Shown here piece after piece: positions 5,827 through 31,192 of a stretch of 32,000 nt of DNA; the stretch's first letter is position 1, and each line of letters opens with the position of its first letter. Source of the stretch: Ktedonobacterales bacterium (lineage in GTDB: Bacteria > Chloroflexota > Ktedonobacteria > Ktedonobacterales > JADMIN01). The notes under the pieces were generated by a model that was not told the origin of the DNA, searched no databases, and saw nothing but the letters and a program-made list of their open reading frames with translations. The stretch is taken from NCBI GenBank assembly GCA_030167145.1, contig CP126532.1, positions 240,001 to 272,000 of the forward strand, written 5' to 3'. A program made the position numbers and the translations under genes.

Positions 5827-6555
5827 ATGTCATCTGATACCGTTGATACACAATTGCCTACTGATGACCCATTTCTCACCCTGAAGTCTGGCGCGACCGA
5901 AATCTACCTCATCCGCCACGCCAATGCCCTTCCCGAAGCAGAAGAAGTCGTTGGCGGCGACTACGATGCCCAGGCGCTCAGCGAGCTTGGCCGCCGCCAA
6001 TCTCAGGCGCTCGGCGCACGTCTGCGCGATATTCCGCTCGCCGCCGTCTACAGCAGCCCCATCGGACGCGCCCGCCAGACCGCCGAAGCGGTCGCCACTC
6101 TCCACGATTTGGAGGTGCAGATCGAGCCAGACCTACGCGAAGTCGCGCTTGGCGTAATCGGCCCCGCTACGCACGATGGCCTCCCACCGGAAGAAGTCGC
6201 GAAAATGCTGAAAGCTCGCCTGCACGAAATCGCTACCATCGCTGTCACCACTGGCCGCTGGGAGAGCATCCCTGGCTCCGAGCCGTCCGTCTCCCTGCGC
6301 GCGCGCATGCTTGCCGCTGTCCAGCGCCTCGCTATCGCCCATCCCGGCCAGCGCATTGCCGCCGTCAGTCATGCCGGCTCCATTAATGCCTACCTCGCCG
6401 CACTGCTTCGCCTCGACCATGACTATTTCTTCCCCGCTGCCAACACCTCCGTCTCAGTCGTCCGCCTCAAAGGCGCGCGCTCAATGCTCTTCTCCCTTAA
6501 CGACATCGCCCACCTGCGCACACCTGACCTGCTCGGCTTCGACCCCAGCGCATAG
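5827..6555 (+). CDS. histidine phosphatase (phosphoglycerate-mutase-like) superfamily protein
   Basis: N-terminal 'IYLIRHANA' (RH at 5914-5919) and distal 'AVSHAGSI' match the RHG...H catalytic pattern. Starts 16 nt after the kinase stop. Confidence 0.82.
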   Translation: MSSDTVDTQLPTDDPFLTLKSGATEIYLIRHANALPEAEEVVGGDYDAQALSELGRRQSQALGARLRDIPLAAVYSSPIGRARQTAEAVATLHDLEVQIEPDLREVALGVIGPATHDGLPPEEVAKMLKARLHEIATIAVTTGRWESIPGSEPSVSLRARMLAAVQRLAIAHPGQRIAAVSHAGSINAYLAALLRLDHDYFFPAANTSVSVVRLKGARSMLFSLNDIAHLRTPDLLGFDPSA

Positions 6556-6558
6556 AAA

Positions 6559-6588
6559 GATCCCCTTCCCGCGTTGGGAAAGGGGATC
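6559..6588. terminator. GC-rich hairpin (12 bp with a 1-nt bulge, 5-nt loop) just after the phosphatase gene; possible terminator
   Basis: GATCCCCTTCCC-gcgtt-GGGAAAGGGGATC begins 4 nt after the stop. There is no clear U-tract on the + strand and a short TTTCT on the - strand. Confidence 0.4.
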
Positions 6589-6785
6589 AGGCAACGAGTA
6601 AGCCGTATCATACCCGCGTCTGGTGCGCCGTTAGCGTATCCACCTCTCATGCCACGCCAGGATTAACTGCGGCAAAATGGCTATCGCCAATCGCCACCGA
6701 CACCCACTCGCTTCCTAACCCGCGCAGGCTGGTTTTGCGGACGTAGGCCATTCAGGCGCGGTTTCAACCGCCCGCTCTCCTGCCG

Positions 6786-7628
6786 CTAGTTCCGATACCA
6801 GAAGCGATCCCATAGCTCCCAGAACGTATCGCCCCGTGCCTCCACCTTGCGCGGGTTAACGATCTCCACACCCGGCCGCCCTGCAAATGCCAGCGTGTGA
6901 TCTGGTGCCGCCAGTTCCACTGTGAACGTCATCGGCGTGGCGGGACGGTACGGTTCGGGCCAATCGCGCGTGCTCAGCGCCTCGCGCACCTTGCTCTCGA
7001 TCAGCGCACAGGCATCGCCGTGGCTCAGCGACTTCGCCGAATAGCGCCCCAGCCCCACCTTCACTGGCGCTGTCACCACCTTCGGCCCCAGCAAATCCGT
7101 CACCTCTTTGCAGGTCGCCGTATCGCCCGCCGCGAAGACAATGGGCACATTGAATGTGCCGCAGATCGCCGCTTCGATACCGCTCTCGCCGACAAGCTGG
7201 TCATTGATCCAGGCGTTATACCAGGCCTCGCTGCTCACTGTGTGGCACATCACCCCATCTGGTGTCCCCGCCATCGCGTGCGCGCCCACCAGCAGCGCCG
7301 CGTCGCAGCCCTCGCGCAACGGGTCCACATAGCGGCACCAGGCATGGCCAAGCACATAACTTGCCCCTGGCTCCAGTTTCTCAGGTATCAGACTCTTGAA
7401 GCTATAACTGCCGCCCGCGCCGTGACAATCAATTACGATGATGTCATCAGCGCCCGCAGCCTTCGCTCCGCGCACCGCCGCGTTTACCTCGCCCGTCATC
7501 AGGCGGCGACCCTCTTCATACTGCGGTTTGCCACCGTTCACCTGATCCCAGGTCTCGATGCCGGCCATGCCTTCCATATCCACCCAGATGACCACACGCA
7601 CCGTATACTTCTCCCTTGCCGTACTCAT
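6786..7628 (-). CDS. M55 family D-aminopeptidase (DppA-type)
   Basis: 'VVIWVDMEGMAGI', 'IIVIDCHGAGG' and 'GAHAMAGT' match the DppA/M55 peptidase pattern. Full length, about 280 aa. Confidence 0.82.
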   Translation of the reverse strand: MSTAREKYTVRVVIWVDMEGMAGIETWDQVNGGKPQYEEGRRLMTGEVNAAVRGAKAAGADDIIVIDCHGAGGSYSFKSLIPEKLEPGASYVLGHAWCRYVDPLREGCDAALLVGAHAMAGTPDGVMCHTVSSEAWYNAWINDQLVGESGIEAAICGTFNVPIVFAAGDTATCKEVTDLLGPKVVTAPVKVGLGRYSAKSLSHGDACALIESKVREALSTRDWPEPYRPATPMTFTVELAAPDHTLAFAGRPGVEIVNPRKVEARGDTFWELWDRFWYRN

Positions 7629-8183: not shown

Positions 8184-8511
8184 AGTGCCACCTTCGGCAT
8201 AACGCCGTTCCCGTACCGTGCGCTCCGGCGCTTTCGCGCTCACCATGCGCATATGCACGGGCCTTTGCTAGTTAGCTTGTTGCGCTCCCTCTCAACAGTG
8301 CCAAAAACATCCAGTCTCCGCCAACGCGCTACTGCTGTTCGTCACACAGATATACGTCCAGTTGTACTTCCTGTTGCGTTACCCCGCGCGCCGCTGTACA
8401 AGGCATGCTACCACGTTGAGCAGATTCCCCGCCAATTCGCGCATGTTCCCCCAAAACCGCTATCCTCATCAAGGAAAATACGCTATCATTGCCATCCGGA
8501 GGAATAATCTC

Positions 8512-9363
8512 TTGACGCCCGCAACTCCCGCGCCACACCCACCTATCACAGTTGATGTCGCTCTTGCCCCAACCGCACGAGAGCGATCGGAACGACACAC
8601 CAACGTCACCTACATCGTCGTGGACGTCATTCGCGCCACCACATCGCTCTGCATCTTCTTTGAGTACGGTTGTAATCAAGTGCTCGTTGCCCCGAGTGTT
8701 GCCGCCGCTCGCGCTGCCCGCACGCGCCTGGGACCACGCTGGGTGCTCGCGGGCGAGGTTGGAGGCGCACGGCCCGATGATTTCGACCTTGGCAATTCGC
8801 CCGCCGAAATCGCGGGCGCTGCGCTCGCTGGGCGCGACGTCCTCTTCGCCACCACCAACGGCACCCGCGCGCTCCATGCCTGCACAGGCGGGCACGCCAT
8901 ATTCGCGGGTTCCTTCCGCAATGCCGCAGCCGTCGCCACCACCGCGCTCGCCACCCTATCGGAGGAGAATGCTCGCGCCCCCATCGGCGAGCCAGAAGAC
9001 CCACAACCCGACATTGTTGTCGTCTGCGCCGGACGCGACGACAAGCCAACCTATGACGATACTCTCTGCGCAGGCTATCTCGTCCGCAAGCTCACCGAAG
9101 CTGCCCACGCAATGGGTAGAGACATCATCCTGCGCGAAAATGCCCCGCTGGCCTTCGACGCCGCTGCGGGCGCTGAGGCGCTCTGGGGCTATCGCAATGC
9201 GCTCGCCCGCTCCGAAGCCGCACGCGCCATTGCGCGCATTGGTCTCAGCGGCGACCTCGATTGGTGCGCCGCCACCAACGTCACCCAGGTCGTGCCGCAG
9301 GTGACCGGCGTTGACGCATCAGGCGAGCTATTGATAATCGAACCCACCTCAATGCTTGCATAA
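8512..9363 (+). CDS. ComB-family (2-phosphosulfolactate phosphatase-like) protein, paralogue 2
   Basis: 'YIVVDVIRATTS', 'DFDLGNSP' and 'ATTNGTRAL' are canonical ComB family motifs. TTG 8512 is in frame, 8 nt after GGAGGA (8498-8503). The ORF-track upstream extension has a non-coding look. Confidence 0.75.
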   Translation: MTPATPAPHPPITVDVALAPTARERSERHTNVTYIVVDVIRATTSLCIFFEYGCNQVLVAPSVAAARAARTRLGPRWVLAGEVGGARPDDFDLGNSPAEIAGAALAGRDVLFATTNGTRALHACTGGHAIFAGSFRNAAAVATTALATLSEENARAPIGEPEDPQPDIVVVCAGRDDKPTYDDTLCAGYLVRKLTEAAHAMGRDIILRENAPLAFDAAAGAEALWGYRNALARSEAARAIARIGLSGDLDWCAATNVTQVVPQVTGVDASGELLIIEPTSMLA

Positions 9364-11169: not shown

Positions 11170-11261
11170 ACTCCCTGTCACACTTTCGCCCGCTCGTGCG
11201 GTGTTGTAGGCGAGACCGAACGTATCTATCCGTCATCCCATCCCATCGAGGGGAGCTGCCT

Positions 11262-11888
11262 GTGCGCTTTCGCGAGCCTCCGCGCAACCGTGTGCCGCCC
11301 GCCGTTCCCGCACAAGCGGCATTCGTCGCCGCATTGGAACACAATCAGACCGCTCTCTACACCTTCGCGCGCAACCTGATAGGCGACGCCGAGGAGGCAC
11401 ACGACATCGTACAGGAGGTCTTCGCGGATGCCTGGCGCGCGGCTCTCCGCCAGCAGCCGCCCTTCACCGCGCAAAGCAGCGAGACGGATATACGCCGCTG
11501 GCTCTTCCACGTCACCTATCAGCGCGCCATCTCGCTTCGCCGCCACCGCAGCATCCTTGCCTGGGAGTCCCTCGATTTCGCTGATCCACCTGAACCATCA
11601 CAATCGGTGCCGTCGTTGCCCTTCGATCAGCGACTGGTCGAAGGCGACGCGCTTCGCGAGGCGCTTGCTCGCCTAAACGTGGACGAAGTCGCATGTATCG
11701 TCTTGAAAGTGCTTCAGGGCTTCACCCTGGCGGAGATTGCCCGCATTCTCGACCTCTCGCCCGCCGCTGCTCGTCAGCGCTTCTCACGAGCGATGCGCAG
11801 ACTACGCACCATCTACCTCGCGCGTGAGATCCAGCAGTGCCAAGCCGGGGTATTACCAGAATCCCCAGAAGGGCGGATACGCTCATGA
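11262..11888 (+). CDS. ECF-type RNA polymerase sigma factor (sigma-70 regions 2 and 4)
   Basis: Region 2 'AEEAHDIVQEVFADAWRA...WLFHVTYQRAISLRR' and region 4 HTH 'FTLAEIARILDLSPAAARQRFSRAMRRL'. GTG 11262 lies 6 nt after GAGGGGAG. Confidence 0.85.
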   Translation: MRFREPPRNRVPPAVPAQAAFVAALEHNQTALYTFARNLIGDAEEAHDIVQEVFADAWRAALRQQPPFTAQSSETDIRRWLFHVTYQRAISLRRHRSILAWESLDFADPPEPSQSVPSLPFDQRLVEGDALREALARLNVDEVACIVLKVLQGFTLAEIARILDLSPAAARQRFSRAMRRLRTIYLAREIQQCQAGVLPESPEGRIRS

Positions 11889-13429
11889 CGACCAACCATA
11901 TACCCCCAGTCGCACCCACACCGCTCTGCTCCGCCTTCGAATCCTGGCTGCCGCTGCTCGTATGGAACGAACTGGAAGGCGAAGAAGCAGCGGCAACGCA
12001 AGCGCATCTTCAGCAGTGCCAGTGGTGCCAGCGCTGTACACGCGAGTACGAAACAGTCGGATCGGCGCTTCGCGCCAGCCTTGGCGCTGATGATCTCGCG
12101 CCAACTACCTTTACTCTGGAGGCCATCATGAGCGCCGCTCAGAACACTCCTTCTCTGCCTGCGGACCCCAACTCTGCTCACACAGACCCACCATCCGCCC
12201 CTTCCACTGCGCGTAATTCTCGCCGATTCCGCCGCGCGAGCACGCTCGCGCCCGTCGCCGCCGTGTTGCTCATCGCCATCCTCACCGGCGCGCTCTTCGC
12301 CAGCCGGGGGCTGCTCTTCCGTTCCGCCGTTGCCCCTCACGCCACGCGCACAACTCCGCCCGCCCCAACCACTGCCATTTTTGCTGTGCCGGGTCGCGTC
12401 GCCCTATCAATGGTCGCTATCAATGGCGATCTCTGGTATCAGCATGTAGACCAGCACGGTAACACCAATGTGATCCACGTCAATACGCATGGGGTGGTGA
12501 GCAATCTCCCGCTTTCCAGTGCGTCTCTCGTCGGCAAATCTGGCGATGGTGGGATTTGGGCCGCAAACACGCAGACCAACACTCTCTGGCGCATTGACCC
12601 CAAGACGAACGCCATTAAGCAGTTTCAGCTTGGCGGTGCCGAACATCTCGCTCTTGCGGCAACAGGGCTAGATAATTCCGTATGGTTCTACGATGACTTC
12701 GCCAACACCTGCGGACGTCTTGACCCCACTACCGGCAACGTAACGCGCATTCCCATCCCGGAGCAGGTGACTCCGCGCGTCCCTACGCCCGGCGATGTCC
12801 ACGCCCACATTGAGGAACTCGCTGTTACACCAGATGGAGTCCTCTGGTTTGGCGTCGAGGCCACCCCACAAAACTGGATCGTCCGTTTCAACCCCGCAAC
12901 CAACGCCGTGCAACGCTTCGAGCTATCTCACATCACCCACGAAGACCCATTAGACCTCAGGCTCGATGGGGGCCTCATGCCAGCGCCAGATGGCAGCATC
13001 TGGTTTGTCGCGGGCACCAATCCAAAGCTGGCCGCGCAAAATTCGACCGGAACCGCCTACACATTGGAAATGCAAATCGTCCACGTCACGCCCGACGGCA
13101 ATATCGCACTATATCCGTTTCCAAAATACGGCTACGAAGCCTCTGGCTTCGCCGTGGATGCCCAGAGCAACTTCTGGTTCCTCCAGGACGACGGCGGCAT
13201 GGTACCTGCCAACGGGACCGCGACCCCCGGCGCATCCATTTCGGTAGTGCGCGTAACGCCTCAAGGCGCATTCCAGACCGTGGCGACCATCTCCAAGCAG
13301 CTTGTCGTACTGCCCAATACCGCAGCAATAGCCGTTGCCATTGAGCCAAACCAGTCCGTCTGGATGGCTCGTGAAGCTCGCGACGGTGTCACCTACTACG
13401 CCGTTCGTATTGCACTCCCACATCAATAA
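11885..13429 (+). CDS. zinc-finger (ZAS) anti-sigma factor - TM helix - extracytoplasmic 7-bladed Vgb/streptogramin-lyase-like beta-propeller
   Basis: ATGA overlap with the sigma stop. H-x3-C-x2-C 'HLQQCQWC' at 12005-12028. TM segment 'LAPVAAVLLIAILTGALFA'. Seven repeats of the '(D/N)GxhWF...hxRhxPxTxxhxxFxL' type. Confidence 0.75.
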   Translation: MTTNHIPPVAPTPLCSAFESWLPLLVWNELEGEEAAATQAHLQQCQWCQRCTREYETVGSALRASLGADDLAPTTFTLEAIMSAAQNTPSLPADPNSAHTDPPSAPSTARNSRRFRRASTLAPVAAVLLIAILTGALFASRGLLFRSAVAPHATRTTPPAPTTAIFAVPGRVALSMVAINGDLWYQHVDQHGNTNVIHVNTHGVVSNLPLSSASLVGKSGDGGIWAANTQTNTLWRIDPKTNAIKQFQLGGAEHLALAATGLDNSVWFYDDFANTCGRLDPTTGNVTRIPIPEQVTPRVPTPGDVHAHIEELAVTPDGVLWFGVEATPQNWIVRFNPATNAVQRFELSHITHEDPLDLRLDGGLMPAPDGSIWFVAGTNPKLAAQNSTGTAYTLEMQIVHVTPDGNIALYPFPKYGYEASGFAVDAQSNFWFLQDDGGMVPANGTATPGASISVVRVTPQGAFQTVATISKQLVVLPNTAAIAVAIEPNQSVWMAREARDGVTYYAVRIALPHQ

Positions 13430-15735: not shown

Positions 15736-16254
15736 TTATTTCTTCTTCTTAGGTGTGGCCGTCGCCACTGGCGTATGCGTCGGTGCCACCGTCTGTGTGG
15801 CCACCGGCGCGGGATGGATCGGCTTCACGAGATTCATGCCAAGCCGCGAGAATTCGAGGATCCCTGCACAAGCCAGCGCGATAACCACCAGCACTACGCC
15901 GAGAACGATAAAACTCCGCAGCCGGGAGCGCGGCTTGAAACGTTTTGGCGGCGCGATAGATTGCACCTTCGGGCGCGGCACCACCTGCCGCCCGTTGATG
16001 GCCACAAAAGCCTGCGTATCCCAAAAGTCTTCTTCCTGCACCCATTGATCCGGTGCGAAGAGCGGCTTGGTGGCTGCGGGATCGCGCTCACGCAGCGAGA
16101 AGACCCTCTCTCCCGACCCTTCCAGTGGAACAGACGGCGGCAGTGGAGCATATGATCCTCCCGCTTGCTGTCCACGCTCATTGCTGCGCGCACTGCTCCT
16201 CTGCCCTTGGTCGTCTGAATCTGCGCTATTCACGGAAGCCGACACCTCTGCCAT
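15736..16254 (-). CDS. hypothetical single-pass membrane protein (Lys-rich C-terminus)
   Basis: AAGGAG lies 7 nt before ATG 16254. GC3-biased frame with one TM segment 'FIVLGVVLVVIALACAGIL'. No family recognised. Confidence 0.6.
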   Translation of the reverse strand: MAEVSASVNSADSDDQGQRSSARSNERGQQAGGSYAPLPPSVPLEGSGERVFSLRERDPAATKPLFAPDQWVQEEDFWDTQAFVAINGRQVVPRPKVQSIAPPKRFKPRSRLRSFIVLGVVLVVIALACAGILEFSRLGMNLVKPIHPAPVATQTVAPTHTPVATATPKKKK

Positions 16255-16511
16255 CTACCCGCTCCTTCGCCACTGGAGTCACATGCCCACCCTCCACACA
16301 ACATTTCCCACTCCCCGCGTTCCCCATGCAAACCGACCAGCTAGCACTTGCCGCTGACCCCAGCATAGCATGCCGCCGCGCACTGTACTGTGAACCACTT
16401 CACACTTTAGCGGCTGCCAGCGGATACGTGAGCGAGCGTGCGAGTGTCGCACTTCAGGTGGCGATGATACGACACTTGCTCACTGATGAGACGCGCTAAT
16501 GCGCCGAATAC

Positions 16512-26172: not shown

Positions 26173-27366
26173 CTACAACGTCAGCTCTGGTGGCGCAAAG
26201 ATCGCCCGCACAAGCCGGTCAGCGTCATGGCGCACCAGATGTCCCTGATGCACCGCCAGTAGCGCATCTACGATCACATCCGGCACGAGTTGGCTCACTG
26301 CCTCCACATCAGGCTCGACGGGATATTGCTGCTGCGCCTCGTAGCGTTCTACCAACTCTTCCGGGAGCGAGCCATCATGCAGAATCACCCGGTCCACTCT
26401 CCCGCCAAGGTAGGTGTGCAGTTCGCGCACAAAGTCGGACGCGCGGAAAGCGTCTGTCTCGCCATGCTTGGTCATCAGATTGCAGATGTACACCTTACGC
26501 GCTTCAGATCCGCGAATAGCCTCCGCGATGTCACGCACCAGCAAATTCGGCAGGATGCTCGTATACAGATCTCCCGGCCCAAGCACGATCACATCGGCCC
26601 GGCGGATCGCGCGCAACGCCTCGGCGCAGGCTGGCGTCTCCTCACGCAGGAAGATACGTTGGATCGGCGACAGTGACCCGGCGTCGTGCAAGCCCCGTGT
26701 ATCAATCTCTGTCTCACCGCAGATGACACCGCCGCCGGCCAGTTCGGCGCAGAGTGTCGCATGCTCCAGTGTGACAGGCAGCACCTTGCCAGCGGTATCC
26801 AGCACTTCCTGCGCATCTTCAATTGCCAGCAAGAGGTTCCCATCGTTCAGTTCTTGCAGCGCCGAGAGGATCAGATTGCCCAGACTATGCCCCGCCACAC
26901 CGGCTTCACGCCCCAACATCTGCGCCTTCGAGTCGTTCGGGTCACCAGCGATCAATGCATCGGGGCGCGTCCCCTGCCCCTGGCGAAAGCGAAAGCCGAA
27001 GATTTCGCGCCAGAGCACCCCTTTGCGCGAGAGCGCCACCAGCGCCTGCCTCAGGTCACCATACGGCAGCGTGCCGAACTCATCCATCAGCCTCCGCGAA
27101 CTGCCGCCGCTATCAGACATCGTCACAATCGCGGTGATCGCACATGGATAGCGCTTCAGGCTGGATAGTACCGCGAACGGACCTGTACCGCCGCCAATCG
27201 TCACCACTCGCTTCTCGACCATCTGCCGCAATGTCTGGCGCTCCCGCTCAGGGTCACGCCCCTCAAGTGTCCGCGCCACAATGCTTGCTCTTTCTCTTGC
27301 CCATCGCTCGCTAACCACACCGCTTCCACACTCCATCAGCATGAATGCTGCCATGATCGGGTGCAA
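26173..27366 (-). CDS. YvcK / CofD-family protein (gluconeogenesis-factor-type, UPF0052)
   Basis: 'VVTIGGGTGPFAVLSSLK' and 'ITAIVTMSDSGGSSRRLMDEFGTLPYGDLRQALVAL' are YvcK-type motifs. The start is uncertain: TTG 27366, ATG 27354 and ATG 27222 are all possible. Confidence 0.82.
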   Translation of the reverse strand: MHPIMAAFMLMECGSGVVSERWARERASIVARTLEGRDPERERQTLRQMVEKRVVTIGGGTGPFAVLSSLKRYPCAITAIVTMSDSGGSSRRLMDEFGTLPYGDLRQALVALSRKGVLWREIFGFRFRQGQGTRPDALIAGDPNDSKAQMLGREAGVAGHSLGNLILSALQELNDGNLLLAIEDAQEVLDTAGKVLPVTLEHATLCAELAGGGVICGETEIDTRGLHDAGSLSPIQRIFLREETPACAEALRAIRRADVIVLGPGDLYTSILPNLLVRDIAEAIRGSEARKVYICNLMTKHGETDAFRASDFVRELHTYLGGRVDRVILHDGSLPEELVERYEAQQQYPVEPDVEAVSQLVPDVIVDALLAVHQGHLVRHDADRLVRAIFAPPELTL

Positions 27367-27558
27367 AGCTCCAATGCGAAGTGTTCGGCCCGCCTATCAC
27401 TGCTGAGCACGGCCGGATTGCTTCAAGGGTGTGCCATGCCGTGGATCCCCAGCTTACGTACATGCCCGTCACCTATGCAAACAGCAGTAGAGCCTCGCTC
27501 CGTCTGAAAGATACAGAAGAGCAACAGCGGGGCCGCATCCCGCGAGAGAGGTGGAGCG

Positions 27559-28179
27559 ATGGAGCGGAACGGGAACGTGAACACTGGCGCTTCCTGGGGA
27601 GGCGGTGCGACAGCCTCGCAGCATGCTGAGCCAGCGGATTATGCGCAGTTTGTCGCGTTAGTGCCAATGCACATGGGTGCGGTATTGCGAGTCGCGGCGG
27701 CGCTGATTGGCCCGGCTGACGCCGAAGATGCCGCGCAGGAAGCCATGTTGCGCGGCTGGCAAGCATGGCCAGCAATGCGCAATCCCGCGGCGGCACGCGG
27801 CTGGCTGCTGCGCATCGCGGTCAATGTTTGCAAAGACTGGCAGCGAGGGCGTTATGGCACCCATAAACGGCTCGACCTACCCTTGCGCGACGATGCAAGC
27901 AACATCGAACCCGCACTTCTGGACGCCGACCCCGGCGCCAGTGACGCTGCCGCCTCTATGGACCTGCGCGCCGCCATCAACGAGTTGCATCCAGAGTTGC
28001 GTATGGTCGTCTTGCTCCGCCACTACGTGGGCATGGACTCGAACGAGATAGGTGCGGCGCTTGGTATCCCGCCTGGTACCGTCCGCACGCGACTGCGTCG
28101 TGCGCTTGCGCTGCTCCGCGAGCGGCTCAGCCGGTCGGGCCACTGGCCATCGGCCTACACCCAGGAAGGCGGCAGGTAA
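27559..28179 (+). CDS. ECF-type RNA polymerase sigma factor
   Basis: Region 2 'AEDAAQEAMLRGWQAW...WLLRIAVNVCKDWQR' and region 4 'MDSNEIGAALGIPPGTVRTRLRRALALLRE'. GAGAGAGGTGGAG RBS present. Confidence 0.85.
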   Translation: MERNGNVNTGASWGGGATASQHAEPADYAQFVALVPMHMGAVLRVAAALIGPADAEDAAQEAMLRGWQAWPAMRNPAAARGWLLRIAVNVCKDWQRGRYGTHKRLDLPLRDDASNIEPALLDADPGASDAAASMDLRAAINELHPELRMVVLLRHYVGMDSNEIGAALGIPPGTVRTRLRRALALLRERLSRSGHWPSAYTQEGGR

Positions 28180-29744
28180 TGTCCGACTATTACGATGGCG
28201 AAAATGCTCCAAATCCTACCGGTGATCTGTTCGCTCTACCGCCTGAGTTGCGCCCCTTTGCCCGCCGTCTGGACCACGATGGAGCCAACTGGCGCAATGC
28301 CCTGCCAGATGACTTCGTGCTCGCCCAGCACGTCATTGCGCGTATCGCTCCACCGCCGCAGATGGAGGCTACATCCACATCACCGCATAATCGCGATTCG
28401 CGCCCCACTCTTCCTGAAACGCAGCAGTCTCGCCCCCCCTCGCGAAACCCGCGTTCCGGGGCTGGGCGAGGCTTCATTGCAGTCGCGGCGATGCTGGTCG
28501 TGGTAGTATTGCTTGCCATGGTGCTGAAGTCATTTGTCCGTCCGCATGTGGGTGCATCTACGTCCACTATCAACACACGCACACCGATTACCACAGCCAC
28601 ACCGTCGTTCGCTGGCAAATGGAAGGTCCTTTCGCGGTTCTCTGGCATTCCTGCCCCACAGCCCGACGACAAGAATCCGTCGCTGGTGGTCGCGCCCAGC
28701 AACCCACTTATCGCGTACCAAGTGACGTTTGCCCGGAGTGGTTCGAAAAGCGCAAGTATCTCGATCCAGCGCACCGACAACGGCGGCGCATCATGGAGTA
28801 AGATCGCGCTACCAACTGCTCTTTCGGTAGATGGCAATGTGGCGGGTGTGCATCTTCTGATCAGCCCACTCAACGCATCATATCTCTTTCTCTCTGTGGA
28901 TTGGTTTACCCCTGGATGCTCCACGTTTGCCCAATATGGCGTCTGTTCCGGCCAATATATGAGCCAAGATAGTGGCAGCGGGCCATGGGTATCGCCATAC
29001 ATGCCTACGTTGGGTGATCTTTGGAGTCTACAAGTGGGCGACGATGGTCATCTTCTGTACGGAACTGTGTACACACCTACCTACAGCAGCGGCGCTTCGC
29101 CCGCCAACGGACTGATGGTGAGCGACGACGGCGGCATGCGGTGGAGAGCCGCAGACAGCGACCTCGCTACCGCTGGCCTGGGCATCAGTAGCAGCGCAGC
29201 CTCGACAAGTGGGCCGACGGTGTATGCGGTTACTGAGCCTGCGAAGCCCGACCCACAGCACGATCCAACCTATCAGCTCTGGCGCAGCGATGATGCTGGT
29301 GTACACTGGTCGCATGTAGGCGGTGCGCCGCCCAATGTGCCGGGCATCCTGCTGGCAAGTGGCGGTTCCCAATCCATCCTCTATTTCCAGCAATCGGCGT
29401 CGCCTAACCAGCCAAGCCCGCAACTCACCTTCAGCATAGACGGGGGGTACACCTGGAATCCCGTTCCGCTTACTGGGATTGATCCTCTAGACCCGCAAGG
29501 TAATACGCTGCCTCTCGTGCTGAACGATGGCTCGCTGCTTGCGACCTTCCGCGATGGCAACGACACGCGCTTCTTCGGCTGGGCGCCCAGTGGTTCCTGG
29601 CGCGAGGTGGCCCCACCGGTGCATCTCCAATCCGTCGCATCCATGTGGGCAGTCCGGGACAGCAGTTCAGGCAAGACCACCTTGTTTACACTCTTCAACT
29701 CTGGAACCAAAGACAGCGGCGTGGAAAGTTGTCCGCTATCCTGA
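28179..29744 (+). CDS. membrane-anchored protein: about 97-aa cytoplasmic N-domain (putative non-canonical anti-sigma) - TM - Asp-box/BNR beta-propeller ectodomain
   Basis: TAATG overlap with the sigma stop. TM segment 'FIAVAAMLVVVVLLAMVL' (about 28470-28535). Asp-boxes TDNGGASW, SDDGGMRW, SDDAGVHW and SIDGGYTW. No HxxxCxxC motif. Confidence 0.7.
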   Translation: MSDYYDGENAPNPTGDLFALPPELRPFARRLDHDGANWRNALPDDFVLAQHVIARIAPPPQMEATSTSPHNRDSRPTLPETQQSRPPSRNPRSGAGRGFIAVAAMLVVVVLLAMVLKSFVRPHVGASTSTINTRTPITTATPSFAGKWKVLSRFSGIPAPQPDDKNPSLVVAPSNPLIAYQVTFARSGSKSASISIQRTDNGGASWSKIALPTALSVDGNVAGVHLLISPLNASYLFLSVDWFTPGCSTFAQYGVCSGQYMSQDSGSGPWVSPYMPTLGDLWSLQVGDDGHLLYGTVYTPTYSSGASPANGLMVSDDGGMRWRAADSDLATAGLGISSSAASTSGPTVYAVTEPAKPDPQHDPTYQLWRSDDAGVHWSHVGGAPPNVPGILLASGGSQSILYFQQSASPNQPSPQLTFSIDGGYTWNPVPLTGIDPLDPQGNTLPLVLNDGSLLATFRDGNDTRFFGWAPSGSWREVAPPVHLQSVASMWAVRDSSSGKTTLFTLFNSGTKDSGVESCPLS

Positions 29745-29839
29745 GCCAGATCGCACTGTGAGCTTGTTCACAGCCGTTTGCCCGCCTGGCGCGTCTTTCC
29801 ATACAGATGAGTAGTTCTGATTTGGAGGGATGAAATCGG

Positions 29840-31192
29840 ATGGGCAAACGGATCATGCGGCGTCTTTGGGCGCGGGTTGTCTATATCGCACTCATGGCGC
29901 CGCTGCTCGCTGCGCTGGCGGGCTGTGTGAGTTCTGGCGCTCAACAACATTCCACCTACACATTTGCTGGCCCTCGCGGTCAGTGGATCAAGCTGGATGG
30001 CCTCACTGGCGGATCATCGGTGAGCATTGCGCCGAGTGATCCCCGTGTAGTGTATGAGGTGTTCGGCCTCCATCCAGCCTATGATGTGTCGCAGGCATCG
30101 CTACGCCGCACCGATGACGACGGCAAGACGTGGCACACGCTTACGATCCCGCTCCCGCAGGGCGGCACACTGGCTGATTACGGTGGCGTGATCACGTATG
30201 TTGATCCGGTGAATCCTGCTATCGTGTTTCTTGCTATCGCCAAATCGTATCCAAAATCCTGCCCTACGTGGCCAGCAGATGGCACTCCTTTCGCCGACCG
30301 CCCGTCATCGCCTGCCGGGCATCTCTACGCGGGCTATGTCGCCTGCACCTGGATGTATCGCAGCGCCGACAGCGGCGAGCACTGGACCGAGATTGCGCTG
30401 CCACGCGGCGGGGCGTTTCGCATCCCAATGGGTAGCTCCCAGACGCGCTGGAATACGCATACCCTGCATGCGCAGGACAATCGCCTCTTTGCACTCGACG
30501 GCGTGGATTGGTACTCCGACACGAACCCTGATCGCCTGATTGTAAGTGATGACCAGGGAGCTACGTGGCGCACGATTGACGATATGTTCATCCGTCAGCG
30601 GCAAGAGGTCTTTGAATATATGCCTACGCCTTCTGGCTCGACGCTCTTTGCGATTACCGTGCTTCAGGACGCGCCTCCCAGGACACCTCTCAATCTTTGG
30701 CGAAGTGACGATGGAGGAGCATCCTGGCACATGATCCGGACACTGCCCGAATTCGAACGCAACGACCTCCTGCTCGCACCAATCGGCTCTTCGGGTCAGT
30801 ATGTACTCTACCTGGACTGCCCCATTACGCCGCAAGATGCTCAGAACACCCCGCCTATCGCAATGGCGAGTACCGATGGTGGGGCTACATGGAAGCAGGC
30901 TCCACAGGCTGGATTGCCACCGCAGGATGACCCTGGCACAGCAGTTGGCATAGCAGGCGTACTGAGCGATGGCAGTCTGCTAGTCCAGTCGCCTGGCTTC
31001 ACGCCGCAAGGGCCGACCAATGTAAGCTACTATCGTTGGAAACCTGGAGACGCAGCCTGGACTCAATTCGCGTCACCCGCTGTGGCCACCAATCTATTAT
31101 TGGTCTCGCCTGCTGGCCCCGATGGACCTGAGGCGCTGTGGAGCATCGCGGCTGGTCCCAATCTTTCAGTTTCGCGCTACATCCTCCCCTAG
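29840..31192 (+). CDS. lipoprotein with an Asp-box/BNR beta-propeller; paralogue of the preceding ectodomain
   Basis: Signal peptide with lipobox 'LAGC' (Cys codon 29924-29926). Asp-boxes TDDDGKTW, SADSGEHW, SDDQGATW, SDDGGASW and STDGGATW. Collinear similarity to 28179..29744 (for example 'LWRSDDGGASW' vs 'LWRSDDAGVHW'). Confidence 0.75.
   Translation: MGKRIMRRLWARVVYIALMAPLLAALAGCVSSGAQQHSTYTFAGPRGQWIKLDGLTGGSSVSIAPSDPRVVYEVFGLHPAYDVSQASLRRTDDDGKTWHTLTIPLPQGGTLADYGGVITYVDPVNPAIVFLAIAKSYPKSCPTWPADGTPFADRPSSPAGHLYAGYVACTWMYRSADSGEHWTEIALPRGGAFRIPMGSSQTRWNTHTLHAQDNRLFALDGVDWYSDTNPDRLIVSDDQGATWRTIDDMFIRQRQEVFEYMPTPSGSTLFAITVLQDAPPRTPLNLWRSDDGGASWHMIRTLPEFERNDLLLAPIGSSGQYVLYLDCPITPQDAQNTPPIAMASTDGGATWKQAPQAGLPPQDDPGTAVGIAGVLSDGSLLVQSPGFTPQGPTNVSYYRWKPGDAAWTQFASPAVATNLLLVSPAGPDGPEALWSIAAGPNLSVSRYILP

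Follow-up and report, generated by a model that had tools for sequence, protein, structure and literature searches.

A 32,000-nucleotide stretch of a Ktedonobacterales (Chloroflexota) metagenome-assembled genome (contig CP126532.1, positions 240,001 to 272,000; hereafter, the window) carries three consecutive plus-strand genes that encode a sigma factor of the extracytoplasmic function (ECF) type, a 521-amino-acid single-pass membrane protein with an Asp-box β-propeller ectodomain, and a lipoprotein with a second Asp-box propeller. In the reading that we favor and regard as reasonably probable, these genes make up two units that stand side by side: an ECF sigma/anti-sigma module and a separately controlled lipoprotein gene. 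A sequence-only reading of the same DNA had joined all three into one surface-sensing unit. For that proposal the outcome is mostly deflationary, since what is left is an ordinary sigma/anti-sigma pair and a neighboring gene. The cytoplasmic motif of the membrane protein and its tie to Asp-box propellers are, as far as the searched literature shows, new, although the kind of module is standard; our literature search returned no paper that joins ECF or anti-sigma factors with BNR or Asp-box proteins, nor any that relevantly joins Ktedonobacter with ECF sigma factors.

The first gene (positions 27559 to 28179, plus strand) encodes a 206-amino-acid ECF (group 4) sigma-70 factor. Its Pfam matches are confined to Sigma70_r2 (1.6e-12) and Sigma70_r4_2 (2.8e-14), it scores 75.7 bits against the sigma70-ECF model TIGR02937 (cut-off, 42.9), and AlphaFold builds it as two helical domains, each with a predicted local distance difference test (pLDDT) score of >90. 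Its nearest relatives in the Protein Data Bank (PDB) are the ECF sigma factors SigE, SigH, and SigL; the closest NCBIfam subfamily model is TIGR02983, at 96.6 bits and below its cut-off of 141.55. We found 577 sigma homologues at an E value of ≤1e-10. The best 120 of them share 49 to 91% identity, and their named sources are nearly all Ktedonobacterales; judged by sequence comparison, the sigma factor belongs to a very large lineage-specific clade. Two public records differ in where the gene starts (27559, giving 206 amino acids, or 27667, giving 170), and the longer form is favored because the residues upstream of Met37 are kept in homologues. The linker that joins domain sigma-2 to domain sigma-4 (residues 119 to 137) holds a strongly conserved motif, LLxxDPGASDxxAxxDLR, whose D124, P125, and G126 are invariant in 84 sequences and for which AlphaFold confidence is low. 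Linkers of ECF sigma factors are usually variable, and this one could be a contact site for the partner protein or RNA polymerase.

The second gene (28179 to 29744, plus strand) encodes the 521-amino-acid protein, which its pairing with the sigma clade marks as a putative anti-sigma factor. The sigma stop codon and the start codon of this gene share one base (GGTAATGTCC), the overlap that the sequence-only reading had pointed out. In every related locus having upstream sequence (L001 to L007, L021, L022, and L095), a sigma gene lies directly upstream with an overlapping or abutting stop and start, so that 10 loci show a partner of this type at the +1 position. Identity across these loci is 59 to 71% for the sigma factor versus 29 to 35% for the partner, and the much better conservation of the former fits what is expected of a sigma factor and its sensor. 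The two genes are a conserved, translationally coupled pair. The sequence-level hallmarks of an anti-sigma factor come together in the partner: its gene adjoins that of a sigma factor, it is predicted to be membrane anchored, and its cytoplasmic domain is particular to a single sigma group. It is very probably the anti-sigma factor of the adjoining sigma. The re-classification of ECF sigma factors (PMC7826278) states that the majority of putative anti-sigma factors have no match to the Pfam domains known from studied anti-sigma factors; they are group specific, are encoded at +1, and usually have one transmembrane helix. The earlier description of the tethered propeller as an unconventional anti-sigma factor is thus supported as regards its pairing with the sigma factor and overstated in "unconventional," such partners being typical.

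The part of the partner proposed to bind sigma is a cytoplasmic two-helix motif at residues 22 to 56 (PELRPFARRLDHDGANWRNALPDDFVLAQHVIARI; 28242 to 28346, plus strand), with AlphaFold helices at residues 22 to 41 and 45 to 56. This N-motif of about 35 residues has the consensus LPxELxxLxRRLxxDGxxWR, with variants ending in W followed by R, Q, or E; L31, G35, and R39 are invariant, and W38 is nearly so. It has no match in Pfam, NCBIfam, or the PDB, and the HxxxCxxC zinc motif is absent from the 521-amino-acid protein; the sequence itself and these profile searches confirm the earlier remark that the N-terminal domain lacks HxxxCxxC and is unlike known anti-sigma domains. When the N-motif was aligned by hhalign with the zinc-type N-terminal domains of the same propeller family, the probability was 0.1%. 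Those zinc-type domains served as a positive control and matched RsiW (6.6e-4), RslA, DdvA, and ChrR, whereas the N-motif matched none of them. Because only two helices are predicted, profile similarity is lacking, and HxxxCxxC is absent, the N-motif falls outside class I of the anti-sigma domains (ASDI, including the zinc-binding ZAS). Among candidate identities that were rejected, the NF052375 "antisigma" model matched 1 of 34 members (E = 0.0056) and was judged a chance hit, a match to CU044_5270 fell in the linker and transmembrane region, and 2ib0, from the PDB profile search, was marginal and unrelated.

The distribution of the N-motif is good evidence of a role in binding sigma. Its profile found only 87 representatives in 1.84 billion proteins. 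All non-repeat matches have the motif at the extreme N terminus (position 47 in P0301), and a transmembrane helix succeeds it wherever enough sequence follows. What lies beyond the membrane varies: besides the Asp-box propeller, the motif is joined to a PQQ/BamB propeller (P0271), to a Germane domain (P0285), and to ectodomains of no recognized type. The sigma factors encoded upstream of the PQQ and Germane forms are 55% and 53% identical to the window sigma, and overall the N-motif accompanies the window-type sigma clade at 48 to 91% identity. Where the Asp-box propeller follows a zinc-type N-terminal domain, by contrast, the paired sigma factors are only 26 to 30% identical to that of the window (L013 and L017). 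The N-motif tracks the sigma clade and not the ectodomain, as an inhibitory module would be expected to do; as far as sequence comparison can tell, it very probably represents an anti-sigma domain that is specific to its group. Separately, several long proteins of 759 to 2221 amino acids (P0236, P0237, P0242, P0257, P0261, P0281, and P0308) match the core of the motif 4 to 14 times, for example as a repeated YQWQLSDDGTNWRNSS; this is probably a repeat of unrelated origin with the same DGxxWR core.

The same distribution bears on the possibility that the 521-amino-acid protein is no anti-sigma factor and is instead a surface effector or structural target that is co-transcribed with a sigma factor controlled otherwise. 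The cytoplasmic motif is the best-conserved nonstructural feature of the N terminus. That it stays with the sigma clade while the ectodomain varies is not easily understood if the protein is only an effector, and +1 translational coupling together with one transmembrane helix is the standard anti-sigma signature. We consider this alternative improbable, even though the 521-amino-acid protein resembles no known anti-sigma domain, the AlphaFold model of the sigma factor and N-terminal domain shows no confident docking, and some ECF groups are described as having no anti-sigma factors, being controlled transcriptionally or by other means (PMC7826278).

The sigma/anti-sigma pair also appears to have its own promoter. 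About 55 nucleotides 5' of the sigma start codon lies a candidate autoregulated ECF-type promoter (AAACAGCAGTAGAGCCTCGCTCCGTC; 27479 to 27504, plus strand), with AAAC at -35, an 18-nucleotide spacer, and CGTC at -10. Motifs of the AAC...CGT type are characteristic of autoregulated ECF promoters. Alignment places the AAC-N18-CGTC motif 5' of the sigma orthologues of L001, L002, and L003 as well, and L007 retains its -10 part; it is likely the autoregulated ECF-type promoter of the sigma gene.

AlphaFold modeling of the 521-amino-acid protein, based on a 34-sequence alignment, gave a mean pLDDT of 79.6 and an order of two N-terminal helices, a disordered Pro/Ser/Arg-rich linker, a transmembrane helix, a second linker, and the propeller. 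The transmembrane helix (residues 98 to 118; 28470 to 28532, plus strand), oriented with the N terminus inside, is predicted from a hydropathy scan (hydrophobic stretch at residues 97 to 120), the AlphaFold helix, and the preceding Arg-rich stretch. The predicted extracytoplasmic propeller occupies residues 149 to 519 (28623 to 29735, plus strand; pLDDT of about 90) and contains four strict Asp-boxes, at 199, 315, 370, and 419, and a degenerate fifth at 262 to 270 that is conserved across the family. The architecture given by the sequence-only reading (an N-terminal domain of about 97 amino acids, one transmembrane helix, and at least four Asp-boxes) was upheld. Although the Pfam BNR score of the protein (26.4 bits) is just below the cut-off of 27, both window propellers are of the BNR/Asp-box type, with at least four S-x-D-x-G-x-T-W boxes and a propeller fold.

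Foldseek comparison of the tethered propeller with the PDB returned sialidase, sortilin Vps10, and GH74 propellers (E of about 1e-9), with TM-scores of 0.3 to 0.39 and identities of 10 to 16%. The residues conserved in the family are Asp-box and structural positions and a Cys247-Cys256 pair, and a first-blade motif, APSxPxVxY, is specific to the family. From sequence and model, the propeller is predicted to be a binding or scaffold domain and not an enzyme. It is very unlikely that the two propellers are sialidases or other glycoside hydrolases and that the locus serves glycan degradation and not sensing: the conserved family columns contain neither an Arg triad nor a Tyr/Glu pair, and a single FRIP in the lipoprotein is not kept even in an 81%-identical relative. 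Public records do name relatives "sialidase family protein," sialidases and GH74 xyloglucanases are among the top Foldseek matches, and 32 of the 34 members match the NCBIfam F510_1955 glycosylhydrolase model. Those profile matches reach only about 25 to 34 bits against a curated cut-off of 175, however, the structural similarity is as low as given above, and 10 of the 34 members match the nonenzymatic Ycf48 equally weakly. A specific identity as a GH33 sialidase was rejected, as FRIP, the Arg triad, and the Tyr/Glu pair are not among the invariant or near-invariant columns and TM-scores are 0.3 to 0.36.

The third gene (29840 to 31192, plus strand) begins 95 nucleotides after the 521-amino-acid gene and encodes a 450-amino-acid protein with a signal peptide (MGKRIMRRLWARVVYIALMAPLLAALAGC) and a lipobox, LAGC (nucleotides 29915 to 29926), that ends in Cys29. 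With a predicted signal peptide and a lipobox of the form [LVI][ASTVI][GAS]C, it is a predicted bacterial lipoprotein, and it belongs to a free (nontethered) propeller subfamily. Its five Asp-boxes stand at 91, 175, 236, 289, and 344, and it scores 36.2 bits against Pfam BNR and 33.3 bits against BNR_2; distance, lipobox, and box number are as the sequence-only reading had them. The two window propellers are collinear over about 400 residues (27% identity, E = 1e-24), which bears out the claimed collinear paralogy, and the four shared blocks quoted in its support are present. The further claim that the lipoprotein is a copy of the same propeller overstates how close they are: both belong to one large family, but as distant members. 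When 106 propellers were placed in a distance tree, the lipoprotein fell with the free forms P0009 to P0012 and P0106, and the neighboring ectodomain is only the 100th nearest of 105. Because the tree places it in a separate free clade, the lipoprotein is not a local duplicate of the sensor, and the idea of a free, lipid-anchored copy of the sensor domain as a third component is not supported.

Comparison of loci points the same way. The sequence-only reading had asked whether the sigma factor, the tethered propeller, and the free propeller co-occur in related genomes; the triad was seen only in L008, a near-identical relative (92% and 81% identity). L001 is an orthologous locus, with a sigma factor 71% identical to that of the window and, downstream on the other strand as in the window, an M1-peptidase/HEAT gene; the position of the lipoprotein is taken there by an ABC transporter and a RibD_C gene. 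L002 to L004 also have no lipoprotein and carry unrelated genes on the other strand instead. In the window, the synteny anchor shared with L001 (31259 to 32000, minus strand, running past the window) is the C-terminal HEAT-repeat end of a 914-amino-acid M1 peptidase. The placement of the lipoprotein gene beside the pair is probably recent and lineage specific.

Within the 95-nucleotide gap, 68 nucleotides before the lipoprotein start codon, is a perfect palindrome (TGTGAGCTTGTTCACA; 29757 to 29772) of the CRP/FNR type, TGTGA-N6-TCACA, whose sequence is that of a CRP/FNR-type operator. The window has two such perfect sites versus 0.02 expected. The palindrome is identical in L008, where it lies within a 25-nucleotide invariant block. 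Over its full length the gap is 91% identical between the window and L008, whereas the genes on either side are 70 to 75% identical at third codon positions. A metagenome scan for the exact 25-mer gave no match. Free propeller genes of L008, L009, L017, and L038 likewise have perfect palindromes 68 to 190 nucleotides upstream; L019 has a copy with one mismatch, and L016 has two copies with two mismatches each. Against this, the background in unrelated loci, measured on remote BNR loci of other phyla retrieved by free-clade alignment, was a single site in 903 kb. In L009, L017, L016, and L019, and likewise for the other palindrome of the window, a -10-like TAnAnT hexamer follows the palindrome at 22 to 25 nucleotides, a spacing that puts the center of the palindrome near -42, as in class II CRP/FNR promoters.

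By comparison, neither the gap nor the upstream region of any free gene has the sigma-type AAC-N18-CGTC motif. The gap does contain an AAC-like/CGTC pair, which was rejected as an ECF promoter because its 20-nucleotide spacer was judged too long, and the palindrome was rejected as a terminator, having a 5-bp stem, no T-run, and no hit in the terminator scan. No CRP/FNR-family regulator was found among the window open reading frames scanned. The lipoprotein gene appears to be separately regulated via its own conserved palindrome, a result that, like the lack of conservation of the triad, the sequence-only reading had itself named as telling against its proposal. The second perfect palindrome of the window (TGTGAACCACTTCACA; 16389 to 16404) lies 135 nucleotides upstream of a 172-amino-acid open reading frame with a single predicted transmembrane helix (15736 to 16254, minus strand), with a TATGCT hexamer 22 nucleotides beyond it; this reading frame may be a further member of the same regulon.

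Several observations weigh against the two-unit reading. Only about 35 residues make up the N-motif, with no similarity to any known anti-sigma domain, and in an AlphaFold model of the sigma factor fused to the N-terminal domain the sigma domains have pLDDT scores of >90 and the N-terminal domain scores of 39 to 47, a weak test as the N-terminal domain has no alignment depth. A scan of the 95-nucleotide gap found no terminator, so that transcription from the sigma promoter may run on into the lipoprotein gene. The best -10-like hexamer in the window and L008 stands 28 to 30 nucleotides past the palindrome, not 22 to 25. A distant locus, L017, likewise clusters free and tethered paralogues, a sigma factor and tethered pair being flanked there by two free paralogues on the upstream side and one on the downstream side, leaving room for a functional link. 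As the homologue sets consist mostly of short metagenome contigs, only a few loci were open to a check on whether the lipoprotein is missing; the genome scan, made with a single peptide pattern, drew only about 12 of its 80 loci from the propeller family.

Some of these points would suit the original proposal, in which the sigma factor, tethered propeller, and free lipoprotein form one sensing unit and the lipoprotein acts as co-receptor, decoy, or ligand shuttle. The genes share a strand, the adjacency across the terminator-free gap is retained in L008, both ectodomains would face the same side of the membrane, and free extracytoplasmic modulators of anti-sigma factors exist (RseB and CseA). 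We nevertheless think such a unit unlikely. The loci that lack the lipoprotein (L001, with its ABC transporter and RibD_C gene, and L002 to L004), the 27% identity and the rank of 100th of 105 between the two propellers, and the absence of the sigma promoter motif upstream of all free genes argue against it, as do free paralogues that have no nearby sigma gene in L009, L010, L016, L019, and L038 and the fact that the gap palindrome is common to unlinked free genes.

The family to which both propellers belong is extensive. A search with the lipoprotein gave 106 relatives, whose named organisms are almost without exception Ktedonobacterales. About 83 of them have a cytoplasmic N-terminal domain of 70 to 140 amino acids, one transmembrane helix, and then the propeller; 14 of these tethered forms are of the zinc type with HxxxCxxC, and the other 69 have variants of the N-motif. 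About 20 relatives are free, with a signal peptide or anchor only, and lipobox-like sites are present in most free paralogues. Free paralogues that have no nearby sigma gene stand singly or in tandem. At L010:1302-4204, L016:3023-7657, and L019:5045-7522, two or three free propeller genes follow one another and no sigma gene was detected close by; such tandem arrays imply frequent local duplication in the family. The Ktedonobacterales locus L017:637-7521 has the order palindrome, two free lipoprotein propellers, ECF sigma factor (30% identical to the window sigma), zinc-type tethered propeller, and free propeller; the last of these is split into reading frames 6191-6889 and 6892-7521, possibly by a frameshift.

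The window holds a second ECF pair as well: a sigma gene at 11196 to 11888 (plus strand; Pfam r2 and r4_2), followed by an anti-sigma gene at about 11885 to 13429 (plus strand). The anti-sigma factor of this pair is of the zinc type (HLQQCQWC), with one transmembrane helix and a different β-propeller (Vgb_lyase/DUF5074-like). From their sequences, pairs of a sigma factor and a propeller sensor seem to be a recurring design in the source genome.

We propose the following mechanism for the two units. The first would be read from the likely autoregulated AAC-N18-CGTC promoter, with the sigma factor and membrane protein co-translated; the two-helix cytoplasmic motif would bind the sigma factor and keep it at the membrane, and the extracytoplasmic five-Asp-box propeller would serve as sensor. 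A cell-surface signal (a ligand or the state of the envelope; a glycan is possible) would then cause the membrane protein to be inactivated or proteolyzed and so free the sigma factor. Ktedonobacterales have a very large set of such paralogous pairs, specific to the lineage, and this unit is one of them. The second unit is the lipoprotein gene, which belongs to a separate lipid-anchored propeller subfamily, probably has its own promoter, and would be controlled by a transcription factor that recognizes TGTGA-N6-TCACA (CRP/FNR type). A bolder scheme, which we put forward as a long shot, is that the N-motif represents a new structural class of anti-sigma domain, serving a large expansion of ECF pairs that is specific to Ktedonobacterales and has exchangeable propeller sensors, and that lipoprotein propellers induced through a CRP-like nutritional signal bind the tethered ones and tune their signaling, so that surface sensing would be linked to metabolic state.

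Experimental genetics is almost absent for Ktedonobacterales, soil bacteria that form mycelia and have large genomes. Our data point to hundreds of close ECF sigma factors (50 to 70% identical) in this lineage, each with a short-motif membrane partner whose ectodomain has diverged or been exchanged. Should the motif prove to be the inhibitory module, the three known structural classes would gain a compact family of anti-sigma domains, the question would arise of how so many similar sigma factors avoid cross-talk, and synthetic biology would have a small, orthogonal sigma/anti-sigma part at its disposal. The TGTGA-N6-TCACA site that recurs upstream of lipoprotein propellers would give a first handle on a CRP-type regulon in Chloroflexota. 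Elsewhere in the window, a 2-phosphosulpholactate phosphatase-like gene (PF04029) at 8362 to 9363 and a CofD-like gene (PF01933) at 26173 to 27366 hint at F420-related cofactor metabolism near the locus. GC skew is negative over almost all of positions 1 to 32000 (cumulative, -4.25), though most long open reading frames are on the plus strand.

Set beside known systems, the lipoprotein gene and the propellers resemble their counterparts in part. In class II CRP/FNR promoters the operator is centered about 42 nucleotides upstream, and in several loci the palindrome lies about 42 nucleotides upstream of the position implied by TAnAnT, the spacing being poorer in the window. The propellers share repeated S-x-D-x-G-x-T-W boxes and the propeller fold with Ycf48/HCF136, sortilin Vps10, GH74 proteins, and GH33 sialidases, but the similarity is remote, the catalytic residues are not conserved, and the Cys pair and APSxPxVxY are the family's own. 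RseB and CseA (the latter from the Streptomyces sigE operon) are free extracytoplasmic modulators encoded in ECF sigma operons, and by analogy signaling could be modulated by a secreted or lipid-anchored protein whose gene lies next to those for sigma and anti-sigma factors. Unlike the window lipoprotein, RseB and CseA are conserved operon members and are not paralogues of the anti-sigma ectodomain; here, conservation of the pair does not extend to the lipoprotein, which has a predicted operator to itself.

The sigma/anti-sigma pair is closer to precedent. Like RseA-σE, RsiW-σW, and RslA-SigL, it comprises a two-domain sigma factor and a coupled +1 partner with single-pass, N-in topology, a cytoplasmic inhibitory domain (putative here), an extracytoplasmic sensor, and probable AAC...CGT autoregulation. 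Where class I domains have a three-helix bundle and a fourth helix and are recognized by profiles of the zf-HC2/RskA type, the partner has about 35 conserved residues in two predicted helices; lack of the zinc motif is in itself common, at about 44% of class I anti-sigma domains (PMC7406223). Class II (the two-helix clamps CnrY and NepR) and class III (RsbN of Streptomyces) are short, helical, sigma-group-specific, and unlike class I (PMC6101532). The two predicted N-motif helices resemble the CnrY/NepR layout, and the 521-amino-acid protein, like RsbN, would be membrane anchored with an extracellular part; in contrast to both classes, its N-motif has no sequence match to either and its ectodomain is a large propeller. 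The SigI/RsgI systems of Clostridium thermocellum consist of many paralogous pairs within a single organism, in which a conserved cytoplasmic inhibitor is joined to interchangeable extracellular sensors. SigI is not an ECF sigma factor, and RsgI carries ectodomains whose ligands are known, these being carbohydrate-binding or glycoside hydrolase modules, but the pairs described here share with SigI/RsgI their large number of paralogues, a common cytoplasmic module, and ectodomains that appear to be exchangeable.

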